Origin: Chloroflexota bacterium
GTDB taxonomy: Bacteria > Chloroflexota > Anaerolineae > JAAYZQ01
Direction: 5' to 3'
Assembly (NCBI GenBank): GCA_018606645.1
Contig: JAGVRI010000008.1
Coordinates: forward strand, 68,036 to 132,035
Length of the DNA: 64,000 nt
Shown: piece after piece, positions 5,716 through 28,088 of the stretch
How the letters are laid out: every line of letters begins with the position of its first letter
How positions within the stretch are numbered: the first letter of the stretch is position 1
The notes under the pieces: generated by a model
The model's database searches: none
What the model saw: only the letters and a program-made list of their open reading frames with translations
What the model was told of the DNA's origin: nothing
Position numbers and translations under genes: made by a program

Positions 5716-6717
5716 TTGTTTCTGGAAAAGGATGATTTCGTGGCTTCTTATCTGGTGACCGGCTGTGCTGGCTTTATCGGATGGAAGGTGGCCGAGTTCC
5801 TGTTGGCTGAGGGCCACACCGTTGTCGGGGTGGATAATCTGAACGACGCCTACGACGTGCGCTTGAAGCGATGGCGCCTCACCCGGCTCCAGGACCAGCC
5901 GAATTTCACCTTCCACTGGTTGGATATCACCGACCGATCCGCGTTAGAACGTTCAACGTTCAATGTTCAACGTTTCGACGCCGTGATCAACCTGGCGGCA
6001 CGCGCCGGGGTGCGGCCCTCGGTGGAGAACCCGTGGGTGTACTATGAGACCAATGTGATGGGAACTCTGAACCTGCTGGAGCTGTGTCGGGAATTGGGGA
6101 TTGCCAAGTTTGTCCAGGCCTCAAGCTCCAGCGTGTATGGTCAAGGGAACCCGATGCCCTACCGCGAGGATCAGAACACCGACCATCCGCCTTCGCCCTA
6201 TGCGGCCTCGAAGAAAGCTGCGGAGACGTTGTGTTCGACCTATCATTCTCTCCATGGGCTGGACATTACCGTCCTCCGCTACTTTACGGTGTATGGTCCG
6301 GCGGGGCGGCCGGACATGAGTCCGTTTCGCTTTGTGCAGTGGATCAGCGAGGGGCGGCCGGTGACGATCTATGGCGATGGCACGCAGTCGCGGGATTTCA
6401 CCTACGTCGACGACATTGCGCGCGGTACCCTGGCTGCGCTCCGGCCGCTAGGCTTTGAGGTGATCAACCTGGGATCGGATCGGCCGATCGGGCTGATGGA
6501 TGCGATCCGGGTCATCGAGAAGCTGGTCGGTCGGCGGGCGCTGGTGGAATACCAGCCGCGCCATCCGGCGGATGTAAAGGATACCTGGGCGGAGATCGGC
6601 AAGGCGGAGTGGATGTTGGGCTGGCGGCCGGAGGTAGCCTTTGAGGAGGGAATGGCGCGGGTGGTGGAGTGGTATCGCGAGAATCGGGCGTGGGCGCGAG
6701 AGGTAGAGACGGGGTGA
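5716..6717 (+). CDS. NAD-dependent epimerase, UDP-glucuronate 4-epimerase-like (SDR)
   Basis: VTGCAGFIGWKVAEFLL..VVGVDNLNDAYDVRLKRWRL..F.FHWLDITD resembles CapI/WbnF/Gla-type nucleotide-sugar epimerases; YxxxK present (YAASKKA). Confidence 0.7.
   Translation: MFLEKDDFVASYLVTGCAGFIGWKVAEFLLAEGHTVVGVDNLNDAYDVRLKRWRLTRLQDQPNFTFHWLDITDRSALERSTFNVQRFDAVINLAARAGVRPSVENPWVYYETNVMGTLNLLELCRELGIAKFVQASSSSVYGQGNPMPYREDQNTDHPPSPYAASKKAAETLCSTYHSLHGLDITVLRYFTVYGPAGRPDMSPFRFVQWISEGRPVTIYGDGTQSRDFTYVDDIARGTLAALRPLGFEVINLGSDRPIGLMDAIRVIEKLVGRRALVEYQPRHPADVKDTWAEIGKAEWMLGWRPEVAFEEGMARVVEWYRENRAWAREVETG
5943..5978 (+). repeat. in-frame heptanucleotide array (GTTCAAC)x~4-5 inside the epimerase CDS, encoding RSTFNVQRF
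   Basis: direct reading: gttagaa c gttcaac gttcaat gttcaac gtttcga; 21 nt = 3 units keeps frame. Confidence 0.8.
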
Positions 6718-18493: not shown

Positions 18494-19543
18494 ATGTTCA
18501 CAGGCAAGACTCTCCTCATCACCGGGGGCACCGGCACTTTTGGCAATGCCGTCCTCGACCGGTTTCTCAATACGGACATTGGGGAGATCCGCATCTTTTC
18601 CCGCGACGAGAAGAAGCAGCATGACATGCGGCTGGCCTACAACAATCGCAAGCTCAAATTCTACATTGGTGATGTGCGCCGGCCCGAAAGTTTGCTCGAT
18701 GCGATGGCCGGCGTGGATTTTGTCTTCCACGCCGCTGCGCTCAAGCAAGTGCCCTCTTGCGAGTTCTATCCCATGGAGGCGTTGTTGACCAATGCCGTGG
18801 GCGCGGAAAACGTGATGAACGCTGCATTAGCCAGCGGCGTCAAACGCGTGGTGCTCCTGAGCACGGACAAGGCCGCCTATCCGATCAACGCCATGGGCAT
18901 CTCCAAGGCGATGATGGAAAAACTGGCCATCGCCAAGTCCCGCGTGGCGGCCGATCGCGGGTGCGTTATCAGCATCACCCGCTACGGCAATGTCATGGCC
19001 TCGCGCGGCTCGGTAATTCCTCTCTTTGCCGAACAGATCCGGGCTGGTCAGCCGCTCACCGTCACCGATCCCACCATGACTCGTTTTATGATGAGCATTG
19101 ACGATGCACTGGACCTGGTGCTTCATGCTTTCACACAAGGGCAACCTGGCGATCTGTTTGTCCGCAAGGCACCTGCCGCGACCATCGAGACTTTGGCGTT
19201 GGCAATGAAACAGGTTTTTCAGGCTGATAACCCGATCCGGATCATCGGCACACGCCATGGCGAAAAAAAGTATGAAACCTTGCTGACCCGCGAGGAATTA
19301 CTCCATGCCCAGGACCTCGGCGACTATTATCGCGTGCAGGCCGACAATCGGGACCTCAACTATGCTCTCTACTTTAGCGAAGGCAAAGCCTCGTTGCCGG
19401 AGGAAGATTATAACTCGCATAACGCCCGGCGGCTGAGCCTGGCGGAGATGGTCGAGATGCTGCTGGGGCTTAAGTTCATTCAGGACCAACTGGCGGAGAT
19501 GAGAGAGCAGAGAACTGGCGTCAGGCTGGCTGCCGGCCTGTGA
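18494..19543 (+). CDS. fnlA: UDP-N-acetylglucosamine 4,6-dehydratase/5-epimerase (FnlA/CapE/WbjB family)
   Basis: MFTGKTLLITGGTGTFGNAVLDRFLNTDIGEIRIFSRDEKKQHDMRLAYNNRKLKFYIGDVR is near-identical in pattern to Cap5E/FnlA N-termini. Confidence 0.85.
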   Translation: MFTGKTLLITGGTGTFGNAVLDRFLNTDIGEIRIFSRDEKKQHDMRLAYNNRKLKFYIGDVRRPESLLDAMAGVDFVFHAAALKQVPSCEFYPMEALLTNAVGAENVMNAALASGVKRVVLLSTDKAAYPINAMGISKAMMEKLAIAKSRVAADRGCVISITRYGNVMASRGSVIPLFAEQIRAGQPLTVTDPTMTRFMMSIDDALDLVLHAFTQGQPGDLFVRKAPAATIETLALAMKQVFQADNPIRIIGTRHGEKKYETLLTREELLHAQDLGDYYRVQADNRDLNYALYFSEGKASLPEEDYNSHNARRLSLAEMVEMLLGLKFIQDQLAEMREQRTGVRLAAGL

Positions 19544-19555
19544 CTGGACGCTCCC

Positions 19556-20848
19556 ATGAACGTGCTGGTTACTGGATCGAGAGGCTTTATCGGGAAGAAC
19601 CTGATCGCGTGGCTGGCCCAGGAGACAGATGTACAGGTCCTGGAGTTTGATCTAGAGCACACCCAGTCGGAATTGGCGGAGCGACTGGCGGTGGCGGATC
19701 TGGTTTACCATCTGGCTGGCGTGAATCGGCCCCAGTCGGTGGAGGAATTCCATACCGGTAATGTGGAGCTGACGGCTCAGATCTGCGAACTGTTGCTGCG
19801 CAACGGCCGGGTCACGCCCATTGTGTTCTCCTCCTCGATCCAGGCGGAATTAGACAACCCGTATGGTGTCAGCAAACGTTGGGCTGAGGCGGTGCTGGCC
19901 GACTATGCCCAGCGCAGTAGCGCAGCCGTGGCCATCTTCCGCCTGTCCAACGTCTTTGGCAAGTGGTGTCGGCCTCACTACAACTCGGTGGTCGCTACCT
20001 TTTGCTACCAGATAGCTCACGACCTGCCGATCACGATCTCTGACCCCAGCCGGGAGGTGCCGCTGGTGCATGTGGACGACGTGGTCCAGGCGTTCTTGGA
20101 GGCAGGTGAAGAGATCACAAGGCAGAAGTCAGAGGTCAAAGGTCAGAGGTCAGAGGTCAGAAAGCGTCGAGACACCTTGCATTTCTCGCCGTTGGCCATC
20201 AAGGATCTACCCCTGACGGCTGGCAATCCCTCGCGAGCAACCCTTGTCTACTGCGAAGCACGGCCGATCTACACCGTCACGCTTGGCCGGCTGGCAGATC
20301 TGATCCGCTCCTTCCGTGCGAGTCGTCAGACGTTGGTGGCTCCGGATTTGAGCGATCCGTTCGTTTATAAGCTGTATGGCACCTATCTCTCCTATCTGGA
20401 GCCGAGTGACTTTGCCTATGACCTAACGCAGCGCACCGATGCCCGAGGCGCGCTCGCCGAGTTCATCAAATCGCCTGCTTTCGGTCAGATTTTTGTCTCG
20501 CGCACAAGACCGGGCGTCACCCGCGGCAACCATTTCCACCACACCAAGGCCGAGAAGTTCCTGGTACTGGAGGGGGAGGCCGTTATCCGGTTGCGAGCGA
20601 TCAGGAACCAGAGGACAGGGGTCGGAGGACAGAGGTCAGAGGTCGGGGATCAGGGGGCAGAGGGTGGTGGGCAGGGAGTAGAGGTGGTCGAGTATCGGGT
20701 GTCGGGGCGGGATTTTCGGGTGGTGGACATCCCGCCCGGTTACACCCACTCTATCGAGAACGTGGGGGACGGGGAGCTGGTGACTTTATTTTGGGCCAGT
20801 GAGGTCTTTGATTCGGACAAATCGGATACATATTACGAGCAAGTATGA
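19556..20848 (+). CDS. fnlB: UDP-2-acetamido-2,6-dideoxy-hexulose reductase/epimerase (FnlB/CapF/WbjC family; SDR + C-terminal cupin), with two heptamer-derived in-frame insertions
   Basis: colinear with S. aureus Cap5F ([95 protein letters not shown]). Confidence 0.85.
20127..20161 (+). repeat. heptanucleotide array AGTCAGA GGTCAAA (GGTCAGA)x3 inside the fnlB-like CDS
   Basis: direct reading; encodes [13 protein letters not shown], absent from CapF homologs. Confidence 0.85.
20608..20690 (+). repeat. degenerate heptanucleotide array (about 11 units, GGTCAGA-like) inside the cupin domain of the fnlB-like CDS
   Basis: GGACAGG GGTCGGA GGACAGA GGTCAGA GGTCGGG GATCAGG GGGCAGA ...; encodes [25 protein letters not shown] inserted where CapF has about 6 residues. 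Confidence 0.8.
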
Positions 20849-21978
20849 AAGTTGCTACGATTCTGGGTACGCGGCCTGAAATTATCCGCCTATCGCGGGT
20901 CATGGCTGCGCTGGACCGCTATACCGATCACGTCATCATCCATACTGGTCAGAACTATGACTATGAACTGAACCAGATCTTCTTTGAGGATCTGGAGATC
21001 CGCAGGCCAGACCTTTTTCTGGATGCTGCCGGCCAGACGGCGGCGGAGACCATCGGCTTGGTCATTGCACGGTCCGATGCGGTATTGCGCCAAATTCAAC
21101 CCGATGCGGTCCTGATTTTGGGCGACACCAACAGTTGTCTGGCGGCGATCGCCGCCAAGCGGTTAAAAATCCCTGTCTTTCATATGGAGGCCGGCAATCG
21201 TTGCTTCGACGAGCGAGTGCCGGAGGAGATCAATCGGCGCATTGTGGATCACATCAGCGATGTCAACCTGCCCTATTCGCAGATCTCGCGCGAATATCTG
21301 TTGCGTGAAGGGCTGCCGCCTGACCGGATCATTGTCACCGGCAGTCCGATGTACGAGGTCCTGCATTACTATATGCCAAAGATCAAGGCATCCGATGTCC
21401 TGAAGCGGCTGAACTTGCAGGCTCAGGAGTATTATTTGGTCAGCGCCCACCGTGAGGAGAACGTGGATGATCCGCAGCAGTTCGCTGCGTTGTTGGAGGT
21501 GCTGACGAACCTGGCAGAGATGGGGCATCGCGTGGTCGTATCTACGCATCCCCGTACGCGCAAGCGCATTGAAGCGACCGGTGTGGTGTTGCCGACCCGA
21601 GTAGAGCTGATGAAGCCCTTTGCCTTCTCCGACTATGTCCATCTGCAAATGCATGCTTGTGCCGTACTCTCTGATAGCGGTACCATCACGGAGGAGTCGT
21701 CCATCCTCAACTTCCCCGCGCTGAACATCCGTCAGGCGCACGAGCGGCCGGAGGGGATGGAAGAAGGGGCGGTGATGATGGTGGGGCTGGAGTGGAAACG
21801 CGTCCGGGAGGGGTTGGCGATTCTCGAAGGCCAGTCGCGCGGTGAGCGACGTACTCTGCGTATCGTGGCCGATTATGCCGTTCCCAACGTATCGGAGAAA
21901 GTGGTTCGTATCATCCTGAGCTACACAGACTATGTCAACCGGGTAGTGTGGCAAAGAACGATTGGAACGGGGTGCTGA
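20845..21978 (+). CDS. fnlC: UDP-N-acetylglucosamine 2-epimerase, non-hydrolysing (FnlC/CapG/WbjD family)
   Basis: [40 protein letters not shown] is the WecB/FnlC N-terminal signature; ATGA overlap with upstream and downstream genes. Confidence 0.85.
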
Positions 21979-23213
21979 TGCGTATCTTGCTTCTGACTCA
22001 GTGGTTTCAACCTGAGCCTACGAGCAAAGGGTTGCCTTTTGCCAAGGCGCTGGCAGGGCGTGGACATTACGTGGAAGTGCTCACCGGCTTTCCGAACTAT
22101 CCGGGGGGCAAGTTGTATCCTGGCTATCGAGTCCGTCCTTGGCAGCAGGAAATCATGGAGGGCATTCCCGTGAATCGGGTGGCGCTGTATCCTAGCCATG
22201 ACCGGTCTGGACTGCGCCGCATGGCCAATTACTTGAGTTTCGCGTTGGCCGCCCTGACCCTGGGGCCCTGGCTGGTATCAAGGCCTGAGATCATCCATGT
22301 GTACAACCTGGTTACGTTGATCCCCGCAGCTCTTCTGCTGCGATGGATATTCAGGGCCAAAGTGCTGTTGGACGTGCAGGACCTGTGGCCCGAGTCTGTG
22401 ATCAACTCCGGTATGTTGAACAATCGGCTACTTCATCGGATTCTGACGGCAGGCTCCATCTGGGCGTATCGGCAGGCTGACTGGATTACCGTTCAGTCGC
22501 CCGGCTTTCAACGGGCGTTAATACAACGCGGCGTGTCATCGGACCGGATCGAAGTGATCTATAACTGGTGCAATGAGGCTGAACAACGCCGTGCTCCGCG
22601 TGACGGGGCACTGGCCCAGCAACTGGGCCTGGACGGTCGTTTCAATGTGCTCTTTGCCGGCACGATGGGGGTCATGCAAGGTCTGGATACTGTCCTGGAG
22701 GCAGCGCGACTTTGCCATGGGCGTGTGCCGCAAGCTCAATTTGTACTGATCGGAGGTGGGGTGGAGCGAGATCGCCTAGAAGCCAAGGCGACTGCCATGG
22801 GCTTGACCAATGTGCGGTTCTTGCCCCGCCAGCCTCCTGACGGTATCGGACGTTTCTATGCACTGGCGGACGCGCTGCTCGTACATCTTAAGGATGACCC
22901 CTTGTTCCAGATCACCATTCCGTCCAAGACTCAAGCGTACCTGTATATGGGCAAACCGATCATCATGGCGGTTCGGGGTGATGCTGCAGAACTGGTTCAG
23001 CAGGCTGGGGCAGGATTGATGTGCGCGCCTGAAGATCCTGTCGCGCTGACCGACGCGGTAGCCTGCCTGGCAGCAATGGCTCCCGAGGAACGGGAACGGC
23101 TTGGGCGCTCTGGAGCCGAGTTTTATGCCCGGAATCTGTCCATGGAGGCCGGGGTCGATCGGTTTGAGCGACGGATGCAGCAGATCGTCCATTGCCCGGG
23201 CCCGAGACGGTGA
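21978..23213 (+). CDS. glycosyltransferase family 4, WbuB-like (putative L-FucNAc transferase)
   Basis: [40 protein letters not shown] resembles WbuB N-terminus; follows fnlABC as in O-antigen clusters. Confidence 0.7.
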   Translation: MRILLLTQWFQPEPTSKGLPFAKALAGRGHYVEVLTGFPNYPGGKLYPGYRVRPWQQEIMEGIPVNRVALYPSHDRSGLRRMANYLSFALAALTLGPWLVSRPEIIHVYNLVTLIPAALLLRWIFRAKVLLDVQDLWPESVINSGMLNNRLLHRILTAGSIWAYRQADWITVQSPGFQRALIQRGVSSDRIEVIYNWCNEAEQRRAPRDGALAQQLGLDGRFNVLFAGTMGVMQGLDTVLEAARLCHGRVPQAQFVLIGGGVERDRLEAKATAMGLTNVRFLPRQPPDGIGRFYALADALLVHLKDDPLFQITIPSKTQAYLYMGKPIIMAVRGDAAELVQQAGAGLMCAPEDPVALTDAVACLAAMAPEERERLGRSGAEFYARNLSMEAGVDRFERRMQQIVHCPGPRR

Positions 23214-23249
23214 TTCGAGATTTGAACGCACAAGTGGTGGTGCCAGGTC

Positions 23250-23468
23250 TTGGAACACAGCGATCAATTGAACATGCGGCAAGTGCTGCAACGCCGACGC
23301 GAGACCCATCGGAAAACGCTCCAACAGGACGTGGAACGTCTGACGACGGCCGCCGCAGCGCTGGGTGTCCAGCGGGTGGTCTTGTTTGGTTCTCTGGCAC
23401 GACAGGAGGCGCGTTTGACGAGCGACCTGGACTTTATGAAGCGTGAGCCACGCCGAGGTGTGCGGTGA
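23250..23468 (+). CDS. minimal nucleotidyltransferase (MNT) fragment or small ORF
   Basis: VLFGSLARQEARLTSDLDF = GS...DxD nucleotidyltransferase motif; only 72 codons, overlaps the next MNT ORF in a different frame. Confidence 0.35.
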   Translation: MEHSDQLNMRQVLQRRRETHRKTLQQDVERLTTAAAALGVQRVVLFGSLARQEARLTSDLDFMKREPRRGVR

Positions 23469-23869
23469 CTGATCGGCCCACGTTCGATCTGGCTGCCAGC
23501 CGGTCCTATCTCAGGTCCCGTCAGGAGCGGGAGTTTCGCGTCAGAGAGCAACGACGGCAGGAGGCGTTGCAGGCTGTGCGCGCGGCGGCTCAGTCTGTCC
23601 TGCCCCGCTTTCCTGGGGTGCGCCGGGCCTATCTGTTTGGTTCAGTGCTGCGCCCCGGCGCAATGCATGCTATGTCGGATGTCGACGTTGCCCTCGAAGG
23701 CGACCTCGATGCGGAAGCCTACTTTGCTGTCTGGCGCGAGCTGGAAAGGGCGGCTCCAGGTTGGCAGATCGAGCTGATCGAACTGGGCGTTGATGTATAC
23801 GTTTCCGCTCGCGTGCGTGAACAAGGGGAGCTGATCTATGAACGTGCAGATTCGGACGCTGAAAGCTGA
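23465..23869 (+). CDS. MNT-type nucleotidyltransferase, MntA-like antitoxin
   Basis: AYLFGSVLRPGAMHAMSDVDVALE motif; overlaps the downstream HEPN-like gene by 32 nt. Confidence 0.55.
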   Translation: MTDRPTFDLAASRSYLRSRQEREFRVREQRRQEALQAVRAAAQSVLPRFPGVRRAYLFGSVLRPGAMHAMSDVDVALEGDLDAEAYFAVWRELERAAPGWQIELIELGVDVYVSARVREQGELIYERADSDAES

Positions 23870-24317
23870 TATTTCGGCCGATCTCGAGGCAATCTCCGAG
23901 ATCTATCAGGCAATCCATCAGTTTGGAGCAGACCTGCGTGATGAGCGCGAACGCATTGTTGTTGCCTACTATCTGCACAATCTCTACTGCGCTTTCGAGA
24001 GCATTTTTGAGCGCATTGCGCAGACCTTTGGCAATCAGATTGCTGACCGTGCTGGTTGGCACGCCGATCTGTTGCGTCGGATGACGTTGGACATCGAGGG
24101 GGTGCGTCCACGCGTGCTGAGCGCGCCAGCCTATGACAGCCTGGACGAACTGCGTCGTTTCCGCCACGTGTTCCGCAGCGCGTATCGCCTGCGACTGGAT
24201 GCTGACCGACTGGCTTTGGTATATCGAAAGGCCCAGGCCTTGGAGCATGTCTATCGCGCTGACATTGAGCGATTTCTGGCCTTCCTGGATGACCTGCTGC
24301 AGGTCGAGGATGAGTGA
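23838..24317 (+). CDS. HEPN-like protein, putative HepT-like toxin partner of the upstream MNT
   Basis: all-helical 159 aa ORF immediately after and overlapping an MNT gene; candidate R-x-x-x-H (LRRFRHVFRSAY) motif; family assignment tentative. Confidence 0.4.
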   Translation: MNVQIRTLKADISADLEAISEIYQAIHQFGADLRDERERIVVAYYLHNLYCAFESIFERIAQTFGNQIADRAGWHADLLRRMTLDIEGVRPRVLSAPAYDSLDELRRFRHVFRSAYRLRLDADRLALVYRKAQALEHVYRADIERFLAFLDDLLQVEDE

Positions 24318-24951
24318 GCACAGAAGTATCCCGGTGTCCGATGGCGTCTACCGCCGCTACGGCAAACGCTTGTTGGACCTGGCGCTGACGGTTCCCGCGC
24401 TCGTTCTGCTCTCGCCGCTGCTGGCGCTCATCGCCGTCCTAGTGCGGGTGACGATGGGCGAGCCGGTGCTCTTCCGCCAGCAGCGTCCCGGGTTGCACGG
24501 CCAGCCGTTTATTCTGTACAAGTTCCGCACCATGACCGACGCCTATGACGCTGAAGGTCGAGTCCGTTCAGAGGCCGATCGTCTTACCCCGTTGGGCCGC
24601 TTGTTGCGGAGCGCCAGCCTGGATGAACTGCCCGAGCTGTGGAACGTGCTCAAGGGGGAAATGAGCCTGGTCGGCCCGCGGCCGCTGCTGATGAAATACC
24701 TGGAGCGCTACACGCCAGAGCAGGCCCGCCGCCATGAAGTGAGACCGGGCCTCACCGGTTGGGCGCAGGTCAACGGCCGGAATGCCATCTCCTGGGAGCA
24801 AAAGTTTGCCCTGGACGTGTGGTATGTGGACCATTTCTCGTTCTGGCTGGATCTGAAGATCATGGCGCTGACCGCCTGGAAAATCCTGAAGCGTGAGGGG
24901 ATCAGCCAGCCGGGCCATGTGACGATGGAAGAGTTCAGAGGTTCCTTGTAA
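24310..24951 (+). CDS. pglC: small phosphoglycosyl transferase, PglC-type (undecaprenyl-phosphate N,N-diacetylbacillosamine 1-phosphate transferase family)
   Basis: colinear with C. jejuni PglC: single N-terminal TM ([25 protein letters not shown]), [47 protein letters not shown]-terminal GHVTMEEF; start ATG 24310 overlaps the HEPN stop. Confidence 0.85.
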
Positions 24952-25217
24952 TGTCTAAACCGACGACGATAGTCTACACAAGTCATGCTCGGGAAAAGTT
25001 CGAGCTTCTGGCTCGCTATGGCTTCCCAATCACCCAGCAGCAAGTAGAAGATACAATCCGCGAGCCCACTTTGGTAATCAAGCAAACCGGTGGTAGACTG
25101 ATCGCGCAGAAGGAGATCGGCCAACACCATCTGTTGCGTGTGATTTACCGGATAGAAGGACAATTCGCCATTGTGATCACCTTCTATCCGGCGCGGAGGA
25201 GGCGTTATGAAACTTAG
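24951..25217 (+). CDS. DUF4258-family protein (putative toxin of a DUF4258/DUF2283 pair)
   Basis: 88 aa, ...HAREKFELLARYGFPITQQQVEDTI... pattern; followed by overlapping DUF2283-like gene. Confidence 0.45.
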   Translation: MSKPTTIVYTSHAREKFELLARYGFPITQQQVEDTIREPTLVIKQTGGRLIAQKEIGQHHLLRVIYRIEGQFAIVITFYPARRRRYET

Positions 25218-25425
25218 CTATGACCGCTCTGAGGATATTCTAACCATCGAGACCACAGAAGAAGGCGTCATTGAATATGCCGAACAAGTAGAGAGCTTTA
25301 TCGCGCACTTTAGTCACGATGGTAGACTGCTCGTACTTGAGATTCTAGATGCCAGCGAATTCCTGACCAATGTCTTCAAGAGTACGGTCCGTGATCCGGG
25401 AGAAAAGTTGCTGGTGACCGCCTAA
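25207..25425 (+). CDS. DUF2283-family protein (putative antitoxin partner)
   Basis: [47 protein letters not shown] matches the DUF2283 pattern (..YD.E.D.LYI). Confidence 0.5.
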
Positions 25426-25433
25426 CGGATTCG

Positions 25434-25955
25434 ATGATGGCAAACCGGGAGATTATCACACCGCAAGCGATGGCGAGCAGGCCATCGGCTGTGCAAAGGC
25501 CATCCTGCGCTTCTGTGCAGATTGCCTTTCTCGATAGGAACCAGGCCATCGCGGAGCTGGTCGAATGCGCCGGACGGCTGCTAGCGTGTGATGATCGGGT
25601 ACTTGCGGTCGGGTTGTTCGGTTCGCTGGCCCGGAGCCAAGCCCTGCCCAGGAGCGACGCTGACCTGCTCATTGTGAGAGAGCATCCCCAGCAACGCTGG
25701 TTCGACCGCATCCCGAGTTATGCCGACGCCTTTGCAGGCGTTTCGTTGCCGGTGGATGTCTTTCCCTACACGGTGGAGGAACTCAGGCGGATGATCGCGG
25801 GTCGTTCCGGCTTTCTGCGCACTATCCTGAGAGAAGTGATTCCCCTCGGCGGGGATGCTGAGATTTGGAGCGACTTATCAGGGGTCAGAGCTCGGCGGTC
25901 AGAGGTCAGGGATCAGGGGGATGACGGATGCCGATCAGGTCGGCGAAGGACTTGA
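25434..25955 (+). CDS. MNT-type nucleotidyltransferase; C-terminus extended through a heptamer array
   Basis: [25 protein letters not shown] motif; the last about 25 codons are read through the GGTCAGA-type array. Confidence 0.55.
25881..25922 (+). repeat. heptanucleotide array (GGTCAGA-like, about 6 units) at the MNT/four-helix-bundle gene junction
   Basis: GGGTCAG AGCTCGG CGGTCAG AGGTCAG GGATCAG GGGGATG. Confidence 0.75.
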
Positions 25956-26308
25956 TGGTATATCAGAAAGCCTATCAACTGGCAATGGCGGTGTTCGAGG
26001 CAAGCAAGGAGTTCCCACCGGAAGAACGGTTTGCCTTGACCAGCCAGATTCGCCGCTCGTCACGTTCGGTGTGCCTGAATCTGCGCGAGGCGTGGGCCAA
26101 GCGTCGCTATGAAGCACATTTCGTGAGCAAACTCACCGATTGTGACGGCGAAAACGGTGAAACTGACTCGTCGCTCGATTTTGCCCGGGATTGCGGCTAC
26201 ATCAATTCCGATGAGCACGCTCAGCTCACTGCCCTCTGCGCGGAAATCGGCAAAATGCTCGGTAGCATGCTCAACAACCCCACCCCATTTCTGATCTGTG
26301 ACCGCTGA
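25928..26308 (+). CDS. four-helix-bundle protein (23S rRNA intervening-sequence protein family; HEPN-related)
   Basis: [45 protein letters not shown] matches the conserved N-terminal half of this family. Confidence 0.6.
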
Positions 26309-26318
26309 TCTCTGACTT
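26290..26318 (-). repeat. heptanucleotide array in inverted orientation (reverse complement AGTCAGA GATCAGC GGTCACA GATCAG)
   Basis: direct reading; forms the 3-prime end of the four-helix-bundle CDS. Confidence 0.7.
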
Positions 26319-26325
26319 CTGTGGC

Positions 26326-26366
26326 ATCAGCCAGCCGGGGCATGTGACGGTAGAAGAGTTCAGATG
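26326..26366 (+). repeat. direct duplicate of the pglC 3-prime end (24901..24941), about 37/41 identical
   Basis: atcagccagccgggccatgtgacgatggaagagttcagagg versus atcagccagccggggcatgtgacggtagaagagttcagatg. Confidence 0.85.
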
Positions 26367-26392
26367 TCAGAGATCAGCGTCAAGGGGGATGG
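26357..26392 (+). repeat. heptanucleotide array (GTTCAGA TGTCAGA GATCAGC GTCAAGG GGGATGG) continuing from the duplicated pglC end
   Basis: direct reading. Confidence 0.7.
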
Positions 26393-26457
26393 ATGTGAGC
26401 ATCTATTGGCTTGACATCAGGGAGGCGCAGGCGCGAATTCACTAGGCAGCGCAACGT

Positions 26458-26739
26458 TTGGCGGAGAAGTACCCGGAGATCGAGGAGATCTGGCTCTTTG
26501 GATCACTGGCGTGCGGCGACGCGGTGCCGAGGAGTGACGCGGATTTGCTGATCGTCTTAAGCGATAGCGACCTGGCGTTTTGGGCTCGCTCCGTACGGTA
26601 TCAGCCCGAGTTTTGCGGGATCGGCGTGGATGTACTGGCGTACACTTGCGCTGAACTCTTGCATTTGCGAGACGAGTGCGGAGGACTGTGGCACGAGGTA
26701 GAACGTGAGGGCATCTGTTTGTTTTGGCGAGTGCCCTGA
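26458..26739 (+). CDS. MNT-type nucleotidyltransferase (antitoxin-like)
   Basis: [24 protein letters not shown] motif, 93 aa. Confidence 0.55.
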   Translation: MAEKYPEIEEIWLFGSLACGDAVPRSDADLLIVLSDSDLAFWARSVRYQPEFCGIGVDVLAYTCAELLHLRDECGGLWHEVEREGICLFWRVP

Positions 26740-26748
26740 GGAGGGCGG

Positions 26749-27414
26749 GTGAGCATCCGGCAAATCGCCATTTATGGAGCTGGAGGATTCGCGCGGGAGG
26801 TGGCCTGGCTGGTTCAGGCCTGCAACGAGGGAGTTGAGAGATACCAGGTCGTTTGTTTCATTGATGATGACGTCGGAAAACATGGCACAATCCTCAACGG
26901 CATCCCCATTATGGGCCTGGAGCGCGCCCGCCAGCGATTCCCCGAAGCGCGGGTGGTCGGCGGTGTGGGCAGTCCCCAAACCCGCCAACTCCTCATGGAG
27001 AAGGCAGCCCGGGTTGGATTCGAGTTCGATACAATCATCCATCCCAGGGTGGAGCGGTCCGCCTGGATCGAAATCGGCGCGGGCACGGTGATCTGCGCCG
27101 GGAATATCTTGACCACCAACATTGTCCTGGGGCGACACGTACAGATCAATCTAGATTGCACCGTCGGCCATGATGTGATCATGGGGGATTATACCACGTT
27201 GGCTCCGGGAGTCCACGTGTCGGGATGCGTGCACCTGGGTCGGCGGGTTTATGTCGGCACTGGCGCGGTGATTATCAACGGCACGCTCGAGGAGCCGATC
27301 CGGATTGGCGATGATGCAGTGATCGGTGCTGGCGCGTGCGTGATCGGATCGGTACCGGCTGGCGTGACGGTGGTCGGGGTACCGGCGCGCCCGTTGCCGC
27401 GCTCCCAATCATGA
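26749..27414 (+). CDS. PglD/NeuD/WbpD-family sugar N-acetyltransferase (Rossmann-like N-domain + left-handed beta-helix)
   Basis: IAIYGAGGFAREVAWLV...VVCFIDDD N-domain plus hexapeptide repeats. Confidence 0.7.
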   Translation: MSIRQIAIYGAGGFAREVAWLVQACNEGVERYQVVCFIDDDVGKHGTILNGIPIMGLERARQRFPEARVVGGVGSPQTRQLLMEKAARVGFEFDTIIHPRVERSAWIEIGAGTVICAGNILTTNIVLGRHVQINLDCTVGHDVIMGDYTTLAPGVHVSGCVHLGRRVYVGTGAVIINGTLEEPIRIGDDAVIGAGACVIGSVPAGVTVVGVPARPLPRSQS

Positions 27415-28088
27415 GGGACGAGACGAAAGCGTTGATGAGTGAAGAACACAGACGTCTGGTGGTCTATGGCGCCGGCGGCCATGCCAAAGTGGTGCTGGCG
27501 ACGATCGAGGCCGAGGGAAAGTACCAGGTGGTCGGTGTGCTCGATTACAATCCGGCCAGGCATGGTCAACAGGTCTATGGCTATCCGGTGCTGGGGGGCT
27601 GGGAACAGCTCGAAACGCTGCAAAGTCAGAACGTCTATGCGGCGTTTGTGGCGATTGGCGATAACGAGCATCGGGCCCAAGTGGCTCGGCGATTGATTGA
27701 GCATGGATTCGAGTTGGTCACGGCGATCCACCCATCAGTTGTCCGCCTGCGGGGTTCGTGCATCGGTCCGGGGACGCTGGTCGCACCGTATGCATTCGTC
27801 GGGGGCGATTGCACCATCGGCGATGGGGTTATCATCAACACGGGCGCGGTGGTGGGGCACGATAGCAGGGTCGGTTCCTGGGTACACATCGGCGCGGGTG
27901 TGATTTTGGCCGGACAAGCCCGGGTCGGGGACTATTCGTTCCTGGGCATCAGCGCGTCTGTGTTGCCCGGAGTGACGGTGGGTCGGCGGGTCATAGTCGG
28001 GGCCCATGCCGTGGTCACCGAAGACCTTCCGGACGATGTCACCGCGGTCGGGGTGCGGGCGCGGATCATCAAACAGAGGTCGCCTTGA
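27411..28088 (+). CDS. second PglD/NeuD-family sugar N-acetyltransferase (tandem paralog)
   Basis: LVVYGAGGHAKVVLATIEAEGKYQVVGVLD.N plus hexapeptide repeats; ATGA overlap with previous gene if start is 27411. Confidence 0.7.
   Translation: MRDETKALMSEEHRRLVVYGAGGHAKVVLATIEAEGKYQVVGVLDYNPARHGQQVYGYPVLGGWEQLETLQSQNVYAAFVAIGDNEHRAQVARRLIEHGFELVTAIHPSVVRLRGSCIGPGTLVAPYAFVGGDCTIGDGVIINTGAVVGHDSRVGSWVHIGAGVILAGQARVGDYSFLGISASVLPGVTVGRRVIVGAHAVVTEDLPDDVTAVGVRARIIKQRSP

Follow-up and report, generated by a model that had tools for sequence, protein, structure and literature searches.

Intervening sequences (IVSs) with an S23p/IVP open reading frame (ORF) are known from the 23S rRNA of Coxiella burnetii (in helix 45), Leptospira and Xanthomonas. 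How these rRNA IVSs originate and move, and what their four-helix-bundle ORF does, are questions that have stood unanswered since about 1990. The C. burnetii IVS is 428 nt long with a 28-bp terminal stem, is excised by RNase III, and has two to three tandem GACAGAT heptamers before the S23p start (PMC4990558). Heptamer repeats are also known as classes of their own, namely the GGGNATC type in Xanthomonas and Nostoc (PMC4692102) and TAACTGA in Beggiatoaceae (PMC4679880). Here we analyzed a stretch of 64,000 nt (64 kb; hereafter the window) from a Chloroflexota bacterium, which contains heptamer arrays of one family with the unit CAGRGGT (= GGTCAGR). Taken as a whole, two of these arrays, C and D, are probably best explained as the inverted arms of a 443-nt IVS-like cassette (25879-26321), with an IVP gene as the loop, sited between protein-coding genes. 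The parts of the cassette are as follows.

25879-25920, + strand: array C (arm C), 5' arm of the cassette, six CAGRGGT-type units, CAGGGGT CAGAGCT CGGCGGT CAGAGGT CAGGGAT CAGGGGG
25928-26308, + strand: IVP gene, 126 aa, four-helix-bundle protein of the 23S-rRNA-intervening-sequence protein family, bAvd-related
26279-26321, − strand: array D (arm D), 3' arm of the cassette, a heptamer array with the units (26287-26321, reverse complement) CAGAAGT CAGAGAT CAGCGGT CACAGAT CAGAAAT

C and D form a 42-nt inverted repeat that encloses the whole IVP ORF, as the terminal inverted repeats of 23S rRNA IVSs form a long stem around theirs. As RNA, the two arms give 33 pairs over 35 positions, six of them G.U. 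Unit faces unit in register throughout, and even the odd third one (CGGCGGT on the side of C) has its counterpart in D (CAGCGGT). The calculated duplex energy is −63.6 kcal/mol, compared with −32.8 ± 4.4 for shuffled sequences, and was reached by none of 300 shuffles. An earlier note on this DNA, made from the letters of the sequence, had taken D and a further array downstream, E, for the meaningful inverted pair. The D-E duplex is weaker (−45.8 kcal/mol; shuffles −26.3 ± 4.3), and in the minimum free energy fold of 25860-26410 arm D partners C, not E, in a stem that encloses the IVP ORF.

The IVP protein belongs to the same family as the proteins of the rRNA IVSs, matching PF05635 with an E-value of 3.6e-31 and TIGR02436 with 99.4 bits (cutoff 24). 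Among solved structures, PDB 2GSC and 2RLD come nearest. The size of the cassette is also close to that of the Coxiella IVS (443 vs 428 nt), and the tandem heptamers likewise stand immediately before the start codon. The 3' end of arm C, AGGGGGATGACGG, is a Shine-Dalgarno-like sequence for the IVP start, with GGAGG/GGGGG just before the start codon.

The two arms behave differently as coding sequence. In general, none of the three frames of (CAGRGGT)n is closed by a stop and Shine-Dalgarno-like motifs abound in it, whereas its complement runs into TGA within 21 nt in each frame. Arm C is purine-rich and its sense strand has no stop codon in any frame, so the ORF upstream, which is of the nucleotidyltransferase type (MNT1, 25434-25955), reads through it and takes it as a C-terminal tail. 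Arm D carries TGA in every + strand frame, so that any reading frame ends there; it encodes the last IVP codons (...PFLICDR) and the TGA stop. With an open (+) arm and a stop-rich (−) arm, the cassette can therefore occupy a short intergenic gap without producing long fusion proteins.

On the left, the cassette boundary is sharp: collinearity with a close relative (locus L122) stops exactly at 25878/25879. No target-site duplication is visible at 25879 or at 26321, where the right side has no empty site to compare. The flanks are an MNT gene and a remnant of pglC within a polysaccharide/toxin-antitoxin operon, not the helix 25/45 location in 23S rRNA, and a search of 19000-27500 against Rfam gave no RNA family match.

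Tandem Repeats Finder reported period 7 for the arrays. The degenerate two-unit pattern GRTCAGRGRTCAG, with at most one mismatch, has 14 matches in the window against a shuffle mean of 1.08, a number reached by none of 100 shuffles. A phased-unit scan of the whole 64 kb found five real arrays (A to E) and no further array of the CAGRGGT family. With head-to-tail 7-nt units in at least three copies, above chance, the arrays are heptanucleotide simple sequence repeats (SSRs), and their copy number varies among homologous sites (3-18 units in the arms of arm-bearing IVP loci; insert lengths in fnlB, below). The earlier note had read arrays C, D and E correctly in both orientations, including C as the tail of the MNT ORF and D as the end of the IVP ORF.

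The arm-gene-arm layout recurs among homologues. A metagenome scan gave 80 loci with close homologues, whose IVP proteins are 72-89% identical, and 75 of them had both flanks. We scored a (+) arm when at least three phased (+) units lay within 110 nt upstream, and a (−) arm when at least three (−) units lay between 40 nt before and 110 nt after the end of the match. A (+) arm was present upstream in 64 of the 75 loci, a (−) arm in 72, and both in 63, while wrongly oriented arms turned up in 1 and 4 loci. By comparison, none of 148 other ORFs in the same loci had both arms, and among 138 mechanically called ORFs of the window the IVP ORF alone had them. Over the close-homologue loci the median arm duplex was −82.6 kcal/mol (median z −5.2), and both neighbors were co-directional with the IVP gene in 27 of the 37 loci that have long flanks.

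IVP homologues number in the thousands. The best 120 are 76-89% identical and mostly exactly 126 aa long, and homologue C-termini are array-encoded tails such as ..PFLISDR, ..PFLISDL and ..PFLLTSDH. For the IVP core, pN was 0.147, pS 0.835 (saturated) and dN/dS about 0.07, values that indicate a functional protein under strong purifying selection. Since the synonymous sites are saturated, the arms have persisted over a long divergence. For the same reason we dropped recent horizontal transfer as the cause of the ~80% identity across phyla, which strong constraint explains equally well.

In 62 loci the dominant arm units were CAGAGGT, CAGAAGT and CAGAGAT. The unit types co-vary between the arms: the two arms of a locus resemble each other more than they resemble arms taken from other loci (permutation p<0.0005), and rare variants, e.g., CAGGAGT and CAGACGT, appear on both arms of one locus.

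We also collected 14 distant homologues from annotated plasmids, with identities of 31-53%. In 10 of them the gene has inverted arms built of 7-mers or 8-mers that are unrelated in sequence, with units such as CAGGGAG, TAGGGAG, GGGTGTA, AAGGTTY, GTGACAG and GGAGATA-like. The others comprise one half arm beside an ISL3 insertion, two direct arrays and one ambiguous case. Among the inverted-arm cases is an unannotated IVP ORF on the Azospirillum lipoferum 4B plasmid AZO_p2 (L211, locus 1370-2000), with arms of CAGAGGA CGGATGA CAGAGGA CGGAGGA and their inverse. Its flanks resemble 23S rRNA helix-45 sequence, and we read it as a putative 23S rRNA IVS.

The places where these genes sit are varied. 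IVP genes with heptamer arrays lie inside CRISPR-Cas operons in Anabaena sp. 90 (pANA02, L212), Pseudanabaena (pPg_01, L221) and Picosynechococcus PCC 7003 (L220), between cas6 and cas4 in two of the genera and between cas10 and cmr3 in the third. Elsewhere the cassette directly follows a pglC-like gene (L127) or a longer pglC remnant (L129), or lies between fnlA-like and fnlB-like genes (L130) or between fnlB and an epimerase gene (L140, L142, L163). In L140 and L142, we also noticed that about 13 units of TAGAGGA precede the IVP gene in one pure, very long array (about 1895-1985 in L142), which fnlB reads through as a long low-complexity tail; the (−) arm there is weak. In viral contigs, a narrower alignment search gave one weak match, and relatives of this subfamily were practically absent.

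The repeat family extends beyond IVP genes. Scanning species-representative genomes for three CAGRGGT units, we obtained at least 120 loci, and those among the matches listed come from Verrucomicrobiota, Acidobacteriota, Planctomycetota, Chloroflexota, Cyanobacteria, Bacteroidota and others. Where neighboring arrays lie on opposite strands, again among the matches listed, the order was (+)-loop-(−) in 24 cases and (−)(+) in 5, the latter mostly weak two-unit matches; loops range from 6 nt up, mostly below ~125 nt, and the hairpins often stand just after stop codons. A jackhmmer search over the 120 array-bearing loci listed found two further IVP genes, both bracketed by inverted heptamer arrays: one in Rhodothermales (L016) with CAGAGGT arms, and one in Pyrinomonadaceae (L004) with a different unit, GTTTTCA / TGAAAAC, in 27-nt arms that are 96% complementary. 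With so few IVP genes among them, such arrays also exist independently. We therefore rejected the arrays as markers of IVP genes, since just two turned up in the 120 array loci listed; the converse nearly holds. Several genomes bearing these arrays (e.g., L107, L038, L120, L019, L087) carry other tandem heptamers nearby, including CAGGGAA, CATTCAT, GCAATCC, CTCGGTA and TTTCAAG, which suggests a general process in such genomes that generates or tolerates heptamers.

The remaining two CAGRGGT arrays, which the earlier note had missed, lie within a single fnlB/capF-like ORF (19556-20848).

20123-20157, + strand: array A, in frame in the interdomain linker of the fnlB/capF-like gene
20609-20664, + strand: array B, in frame, splitting the cupin (Polysacc_synt_C) domain of the same gene into two Pfam stretches

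FnlB homologues that are ~61% identical (L125, L130, L140/L142) have heptamer-coded inserts of different lengths at the same two sites, an interdomain linker and a cupin loop, the shortest reading RSQRSE. Judged by this pattern, A and B appear to be SSR-like, in-frame expansions and contractions at tolerant fnlB sites, in sense orientation without stops. A separate heptamer array in the window, (AACGTTC) x3.9 at 5948-5974, lies in frame within ORF 5716-6717 and encodes ..LERSTFNVQRF...

The surroundings of the cassette preserve traces of an older history, to which the following features belong.

24898-24942, + strand: native pglC 3' end, partner of a 45-nt direct repeat
26323-26367, + strand: pglC 3' remnant, direct repeat of 24898-24942 with 89% identity over 45 nt
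26354-26388, + strand: array E, CAGATGT CAGAGAT CAGCGTC AAGGGGG, a solitary (+)-type array
25434-25955, + strand: MNT1, an MNT ORF whose tail is formed by array C
26389-26739, + strand: MNT2, nucleotidyltransferase gene downstream of array E, with an in-frame TAG at codon 19

As had been noted earlier, the native end of pglC, TTCAGAGGT, consists of just one unit, and it simply provides the codons for the conserved C-terminal F-R-G; homologues share ..EEF[RM]G... The duplication of this end and its continuation into an array, both claimed before, are equally real. Heptamer-like TCAG motifs bound the remnant on both sides (GGCATCAGCC on the left, GTTCAGA on the right), which makes a microhomology or seeding role plausible. 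Array E starts at the TTCAGA of the remnant. Over its first 19 nt it agrees with outer D, read as reverse complement, at 18 of 19 positions, a closer match than that of C. At its other end, AAGGGGG runs straight up to the MNT2 ATG at 26389; arrays C and E both end 0-7 nt before ATGs. From its reading frame, MNT2 would be either a pseudogene or a gene that restarts at TTG 26458.

The relatives of this island are Chloroflexota. In L123 and L124, pglC is followed directly by pglD, and in L125, L214 and L215 the order is pglC-HEPN-MNT-acetyltransferase. The window retains the last ~35 codons of that HEPN gene (25418-25528), and the first ~30 codons of its "MNT" ORF are the HEPN 3' remnant in another frame; where the remainder of that gene would be, there are now an 88-aa ORF and a DUF2283 gene (24951-25425). 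L122, with a pglC 98% identical, shares the left part of the island. For both L122 and L213, the divergence from the window sets in precisely where arm C begins its first unit. Behind MNT1, these two loci have a degenerate remnant of the pglC 3' end (..GISQPG..) followed by another HEPN gene, and no array there. The arrays therefore did not create the remnant, which predates them. In L129, too, a pglC remnant precedes the IVP arm. Gene order across these loci thus indicates that the pglC remnant is an old relic of a cassette insertion into the pglC end, common to several lineages, and that the IVP cassette was added later, between MNT1 and the remnant.

Three further observations concern this island. 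In L129, the HEPN-remnant plus MNT1 segment occurs twice (527-977 and 2420-2857), on either side of HEPN2-MNT2'-pglC remnant-IVP cassette, which points to a tandem duplication within the island of that locus. In the window, the stretch immediately before pglC (23250-24317) holds a further MNT fragment together with a complete MNT gene and a HepT-like (HEPN) gene, so that genes of the toxin-antitoxin type stand on both sides of pglC. The sequence ACGGATGC after TCAGGG is common to the window and L125, possibly by chance.

How might such a cassette work? It is probably transcribed as part of the operon, since it shows no sign of a mobility enzyme of its own and is co-oriented with its neighbors. 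Once transcribed, arms C and D would anneal to each other in a double-stranded stem of 33 bp or more. RNase III could cut this stem, as in rRNA IVS excision, and so release or insulate the IVP message, and insulation would let the cassette be tolerated in transcribed spacers. The arms change by unit slippage yet stay concordant, and array E now forms the leader of MNT2. We infer the insulating role as well as the mode of spread. For the latter, we hypothesize recombination between cassette arms and IVP-less hairpins of the same heptamer; a second hypothesis is that the IVP pentamer binds the repeats. It is possible, and we propose it only tentatively, that IVP genes with inverted period-7 arms are in general widespread selfish IVS-like cassettes, confined to transcribed spacers, neutralized by the host at the RNA level and spreading by this arm recombination, with the IVP-less hairpins as the non-autonomous form and the pentamer perhaps recognizing the 7-nt repeats. 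The spacer habitats that can be cited are rRNA helix loops and the gaps between cas6 and cas4, cas10 and cmr3, fnlA and fnlB, fnlB and fnlC, and pglC and the next gene. If this is true, rRNA IVSs are one habitat of a general class of elements.

Several points weigh against the cassette and its proposed RNA stem. The right boundary has no clean pair of filled and empty sites, as the contig of L122 ends too early. Array E may have any of three origins, namely the footprint of an earlier arm, expansion of a natural seed (the TTCAGAGGT remnant end), or conversion from D. In Oscillatoria nigro-viridis (L208, GGGAGAG-type) and Pseudanabaena galeata (L221, (AAAGCTA)n / (AAAGCCA)n), the arrays are direct, not inverted. 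Among the ~120 array-bearing loci listed, a CAGRGGT array stands beside an IVP gene in one, and most arrays have no adjacent IVP gene. The RNase III step is argued solely by analogy with the rRNA IVSs. Over the 75 loci, the arm duplex is as stable for the sense strand as for the antisense strand (−85.7 vs −85.8 kcal/mol, p=0.55), so selection in the sense RNA is not separable from a kept inverted repeat at the DNA level, where a role for the inverted arms is possible. We had considered an asymmetry of G.U pairs as evidence for a sense RNA stem: all six in the window have their G in arm C, and across arms G.U outnumbers A.C by 616 to 119, a count biased by the folding algorithm. With equal sense and antisense energies, this argument was dropped.

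Other explanations of the arrays start from the repeats themselves. They could be ordinary heptanucleotide SSRs, arisen by slippage at seeds such as CAGAGGT and placed around the IVP gene without functional meaning. Heptameric SSRs are documented to be over-represented (Mrazek 2007, cited in PMC4692102 and PMC4679880), genomes of many phyla have CAGRGGT arrays with no IVP gene nearby, and the freely varying unit number of the arms, the fnlB inserts of unequal length at two fixed sites and the natural single unit at the native pglC end all look like slippage at work. Slippage alone does not explain, however, why a polar inverted pair surrounds one gene family in 63 of 75 loci and none of 148 controls, why arms persist where synonymous sites are saturated, why unit types co-vary between arms, or why the same layout is built from unrelated 7-mers in distant lineages and in a putative rRNA IVS, and we judge this account unlikely. 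Somewhat less improbable, though still doubtful, is the idea that the arrays are putative binding sites of the IVP protein, a toroidal, Avd-related pentamer, serving as operators or RNA sites for autoregulation, with IVP-less arrays as further targets. XCC0516 (PDB 2GSC) is a homopentamer, and Avd binds RNA and reverse transcriptase in diversity-generating retroelements (DGRs). That IVP genes go strictly with period-7 arrays, of whichever unit, the purifying selection on the protein, and the ends of arrays C and E immediately before start codons are all compatible with binding, and the two loci with direct arrays suit binding sites better than a stem. Yet the protein core is conserved across lineages that have very different unit sequences, and inverted orientation with arm co-variation fits the needs of a stem, not of a binding array.

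The earlier note had proposed that the arrays are microhomology sites on which rearrangements occurred, or that the pglC fragment is carried by a small mobile unit with D and E as its terminal inverted repeats. D and E (26303-26321 and 26361-26379) are indeed 19-nt inverted repeats, 95% complementary across a 39-nt spacer (hairpin z=−4.1); the enclosed remnant begins and ends with heptamer-like sequence, the L129 remnant is also fused to a (+) arm, and in L127 the cassette directly follows a pglC-like gene. But C is the better pairing partner for D, no target-site duplication can be seen, cases in (−)-loop-(+) order are rare and mostly weak (5 against 24 among the matches listed), and pglC remnants follow MNT1 in L122 and L213 without arrays. 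Nor did the D-remnant-E unit recur, as a miniature inverted-repeat transposable element (MITE) would, in the ~220 loci fetched, except in L121, which is 2 kb long and identical to the window; the whole source genome lay outside this search. We regard this model as decidedly unlikely. What stands of it is that the arrays are one repeat family, adjoin a genuine 45-nt pglC relic and belong to a cassette-like unit; the cassette is C-IVP-D, however, not D-remnant-E, and the relic is older than the arrays. A specific association with toxin-antitoxin genes or cassette junctions did not hold either, as the same family lies in frame inside fnlB at two sites and occurs in many bacterial phyla. Finally, the arrays might be G-quadruplex-forming regulatory repeats, like GGGAATC/GGGGAYT of Xanthomonas and Nostoc. 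CAGGGGT variants, common in other genomes, carry the G tracts for this, and placement on the sense strand just after stops together with inverted pairs matches the description in PMC4692102. Array C of the window contains three runs of three or more G, short of the four tracts needed, and D and E contain none; the dominant arm units of the 62 loci cannot form a stable quadruplex, nor are distant arms (GTTTTCA, AAGGTTY and AAAGCTA, for example) rich in G. This reading is very improbable, and we rejected it on unit composition.

Compared with long SSRs, including the cyanobacterial short tandemly repeated repetitive sequences, the GGGNATC type and TAACTGA, the arrays share tandem 7-nt units of variable copy number, a preference for gene ends and for the space just upstream of starts between co-directional genes, the occurrence of inverted pairs and toleration in frame inside genes. 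The TAACTGA leader repeats have a different unit and a similar position before start codons. Unlike the known SSR classes, most CAGRGGT units cannot form a G-quadruplex, and the arrays bracket one particular gene family as a polar pair, a connection that PMC4692102 and PMC4679880 do not report. The CAGRGGT unit itself was not found in the bacterial literature searched.

With MITEs, repetitive extragenic palindromic (REP) sequences and bacterial interspersed mosaic elements, the cassettes have in common short intergenic inverted repeats that form hairpins, many dispersed copies and a location between co-directional genes. They differ in that their arms are tandem SSR arrays rather than unique terminal inverted repeats, in that no transposase or RAYT-type gene is associated and no target-site duplication is visible, and in their cargo, a conserved non-enzymatic protein. 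That protein has the homologous four-helix-bundle fold of the DGR protein Avd (PF22296, bAvd-like, E=3.3e-12), but its NF033474 score of 39.3 bits is below the equivalog cutoff of 80. Among the neighbors examined, which are sugar-biosynthesis and toxin-antitoxin genes, there was no reverse transcriptase and no pair of template and variable repeats; no dedicated search for reverse transcriptases was made.

In the literature on the exact repeat strings and on IVP with heptamers, the Coxiella IVS paper (PMC4990558) was the sole match, and we did not find heptamer-bracketed IVP genes outside rRNA described. An IVS-type stem with an IVP ORF is thus known in rRNA; what we did not find described is such a cassette with heptamer-array arms in an operon. 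The arms also matter for annotation, where they give neighboring proteins artificial-looking low-complexity tails (QRSEVRG..., ..FLISDR), and for metagenome assemblies, which they break. The excess of heptanucleotide repeats in bacteria becomes linked to a specific gene family.

Set against the 23S rRNA IVSs, the window cassette stands between protein-coding genes (MNT1 and the pglC remnant) in an operon, and its arms are longer and are explicit tandem arrays. Its IVP protein is under strong purifying selection, whereas the Coxiella ORF is reported to be decaying, and excision by RNase III, described for the Coxiella IVS, is here a predicted step. Outside rRNA, the arm-gene-arm module is common and conserved in operons of many phyla, which would recast the IVS as one habitat of a broader cassette.

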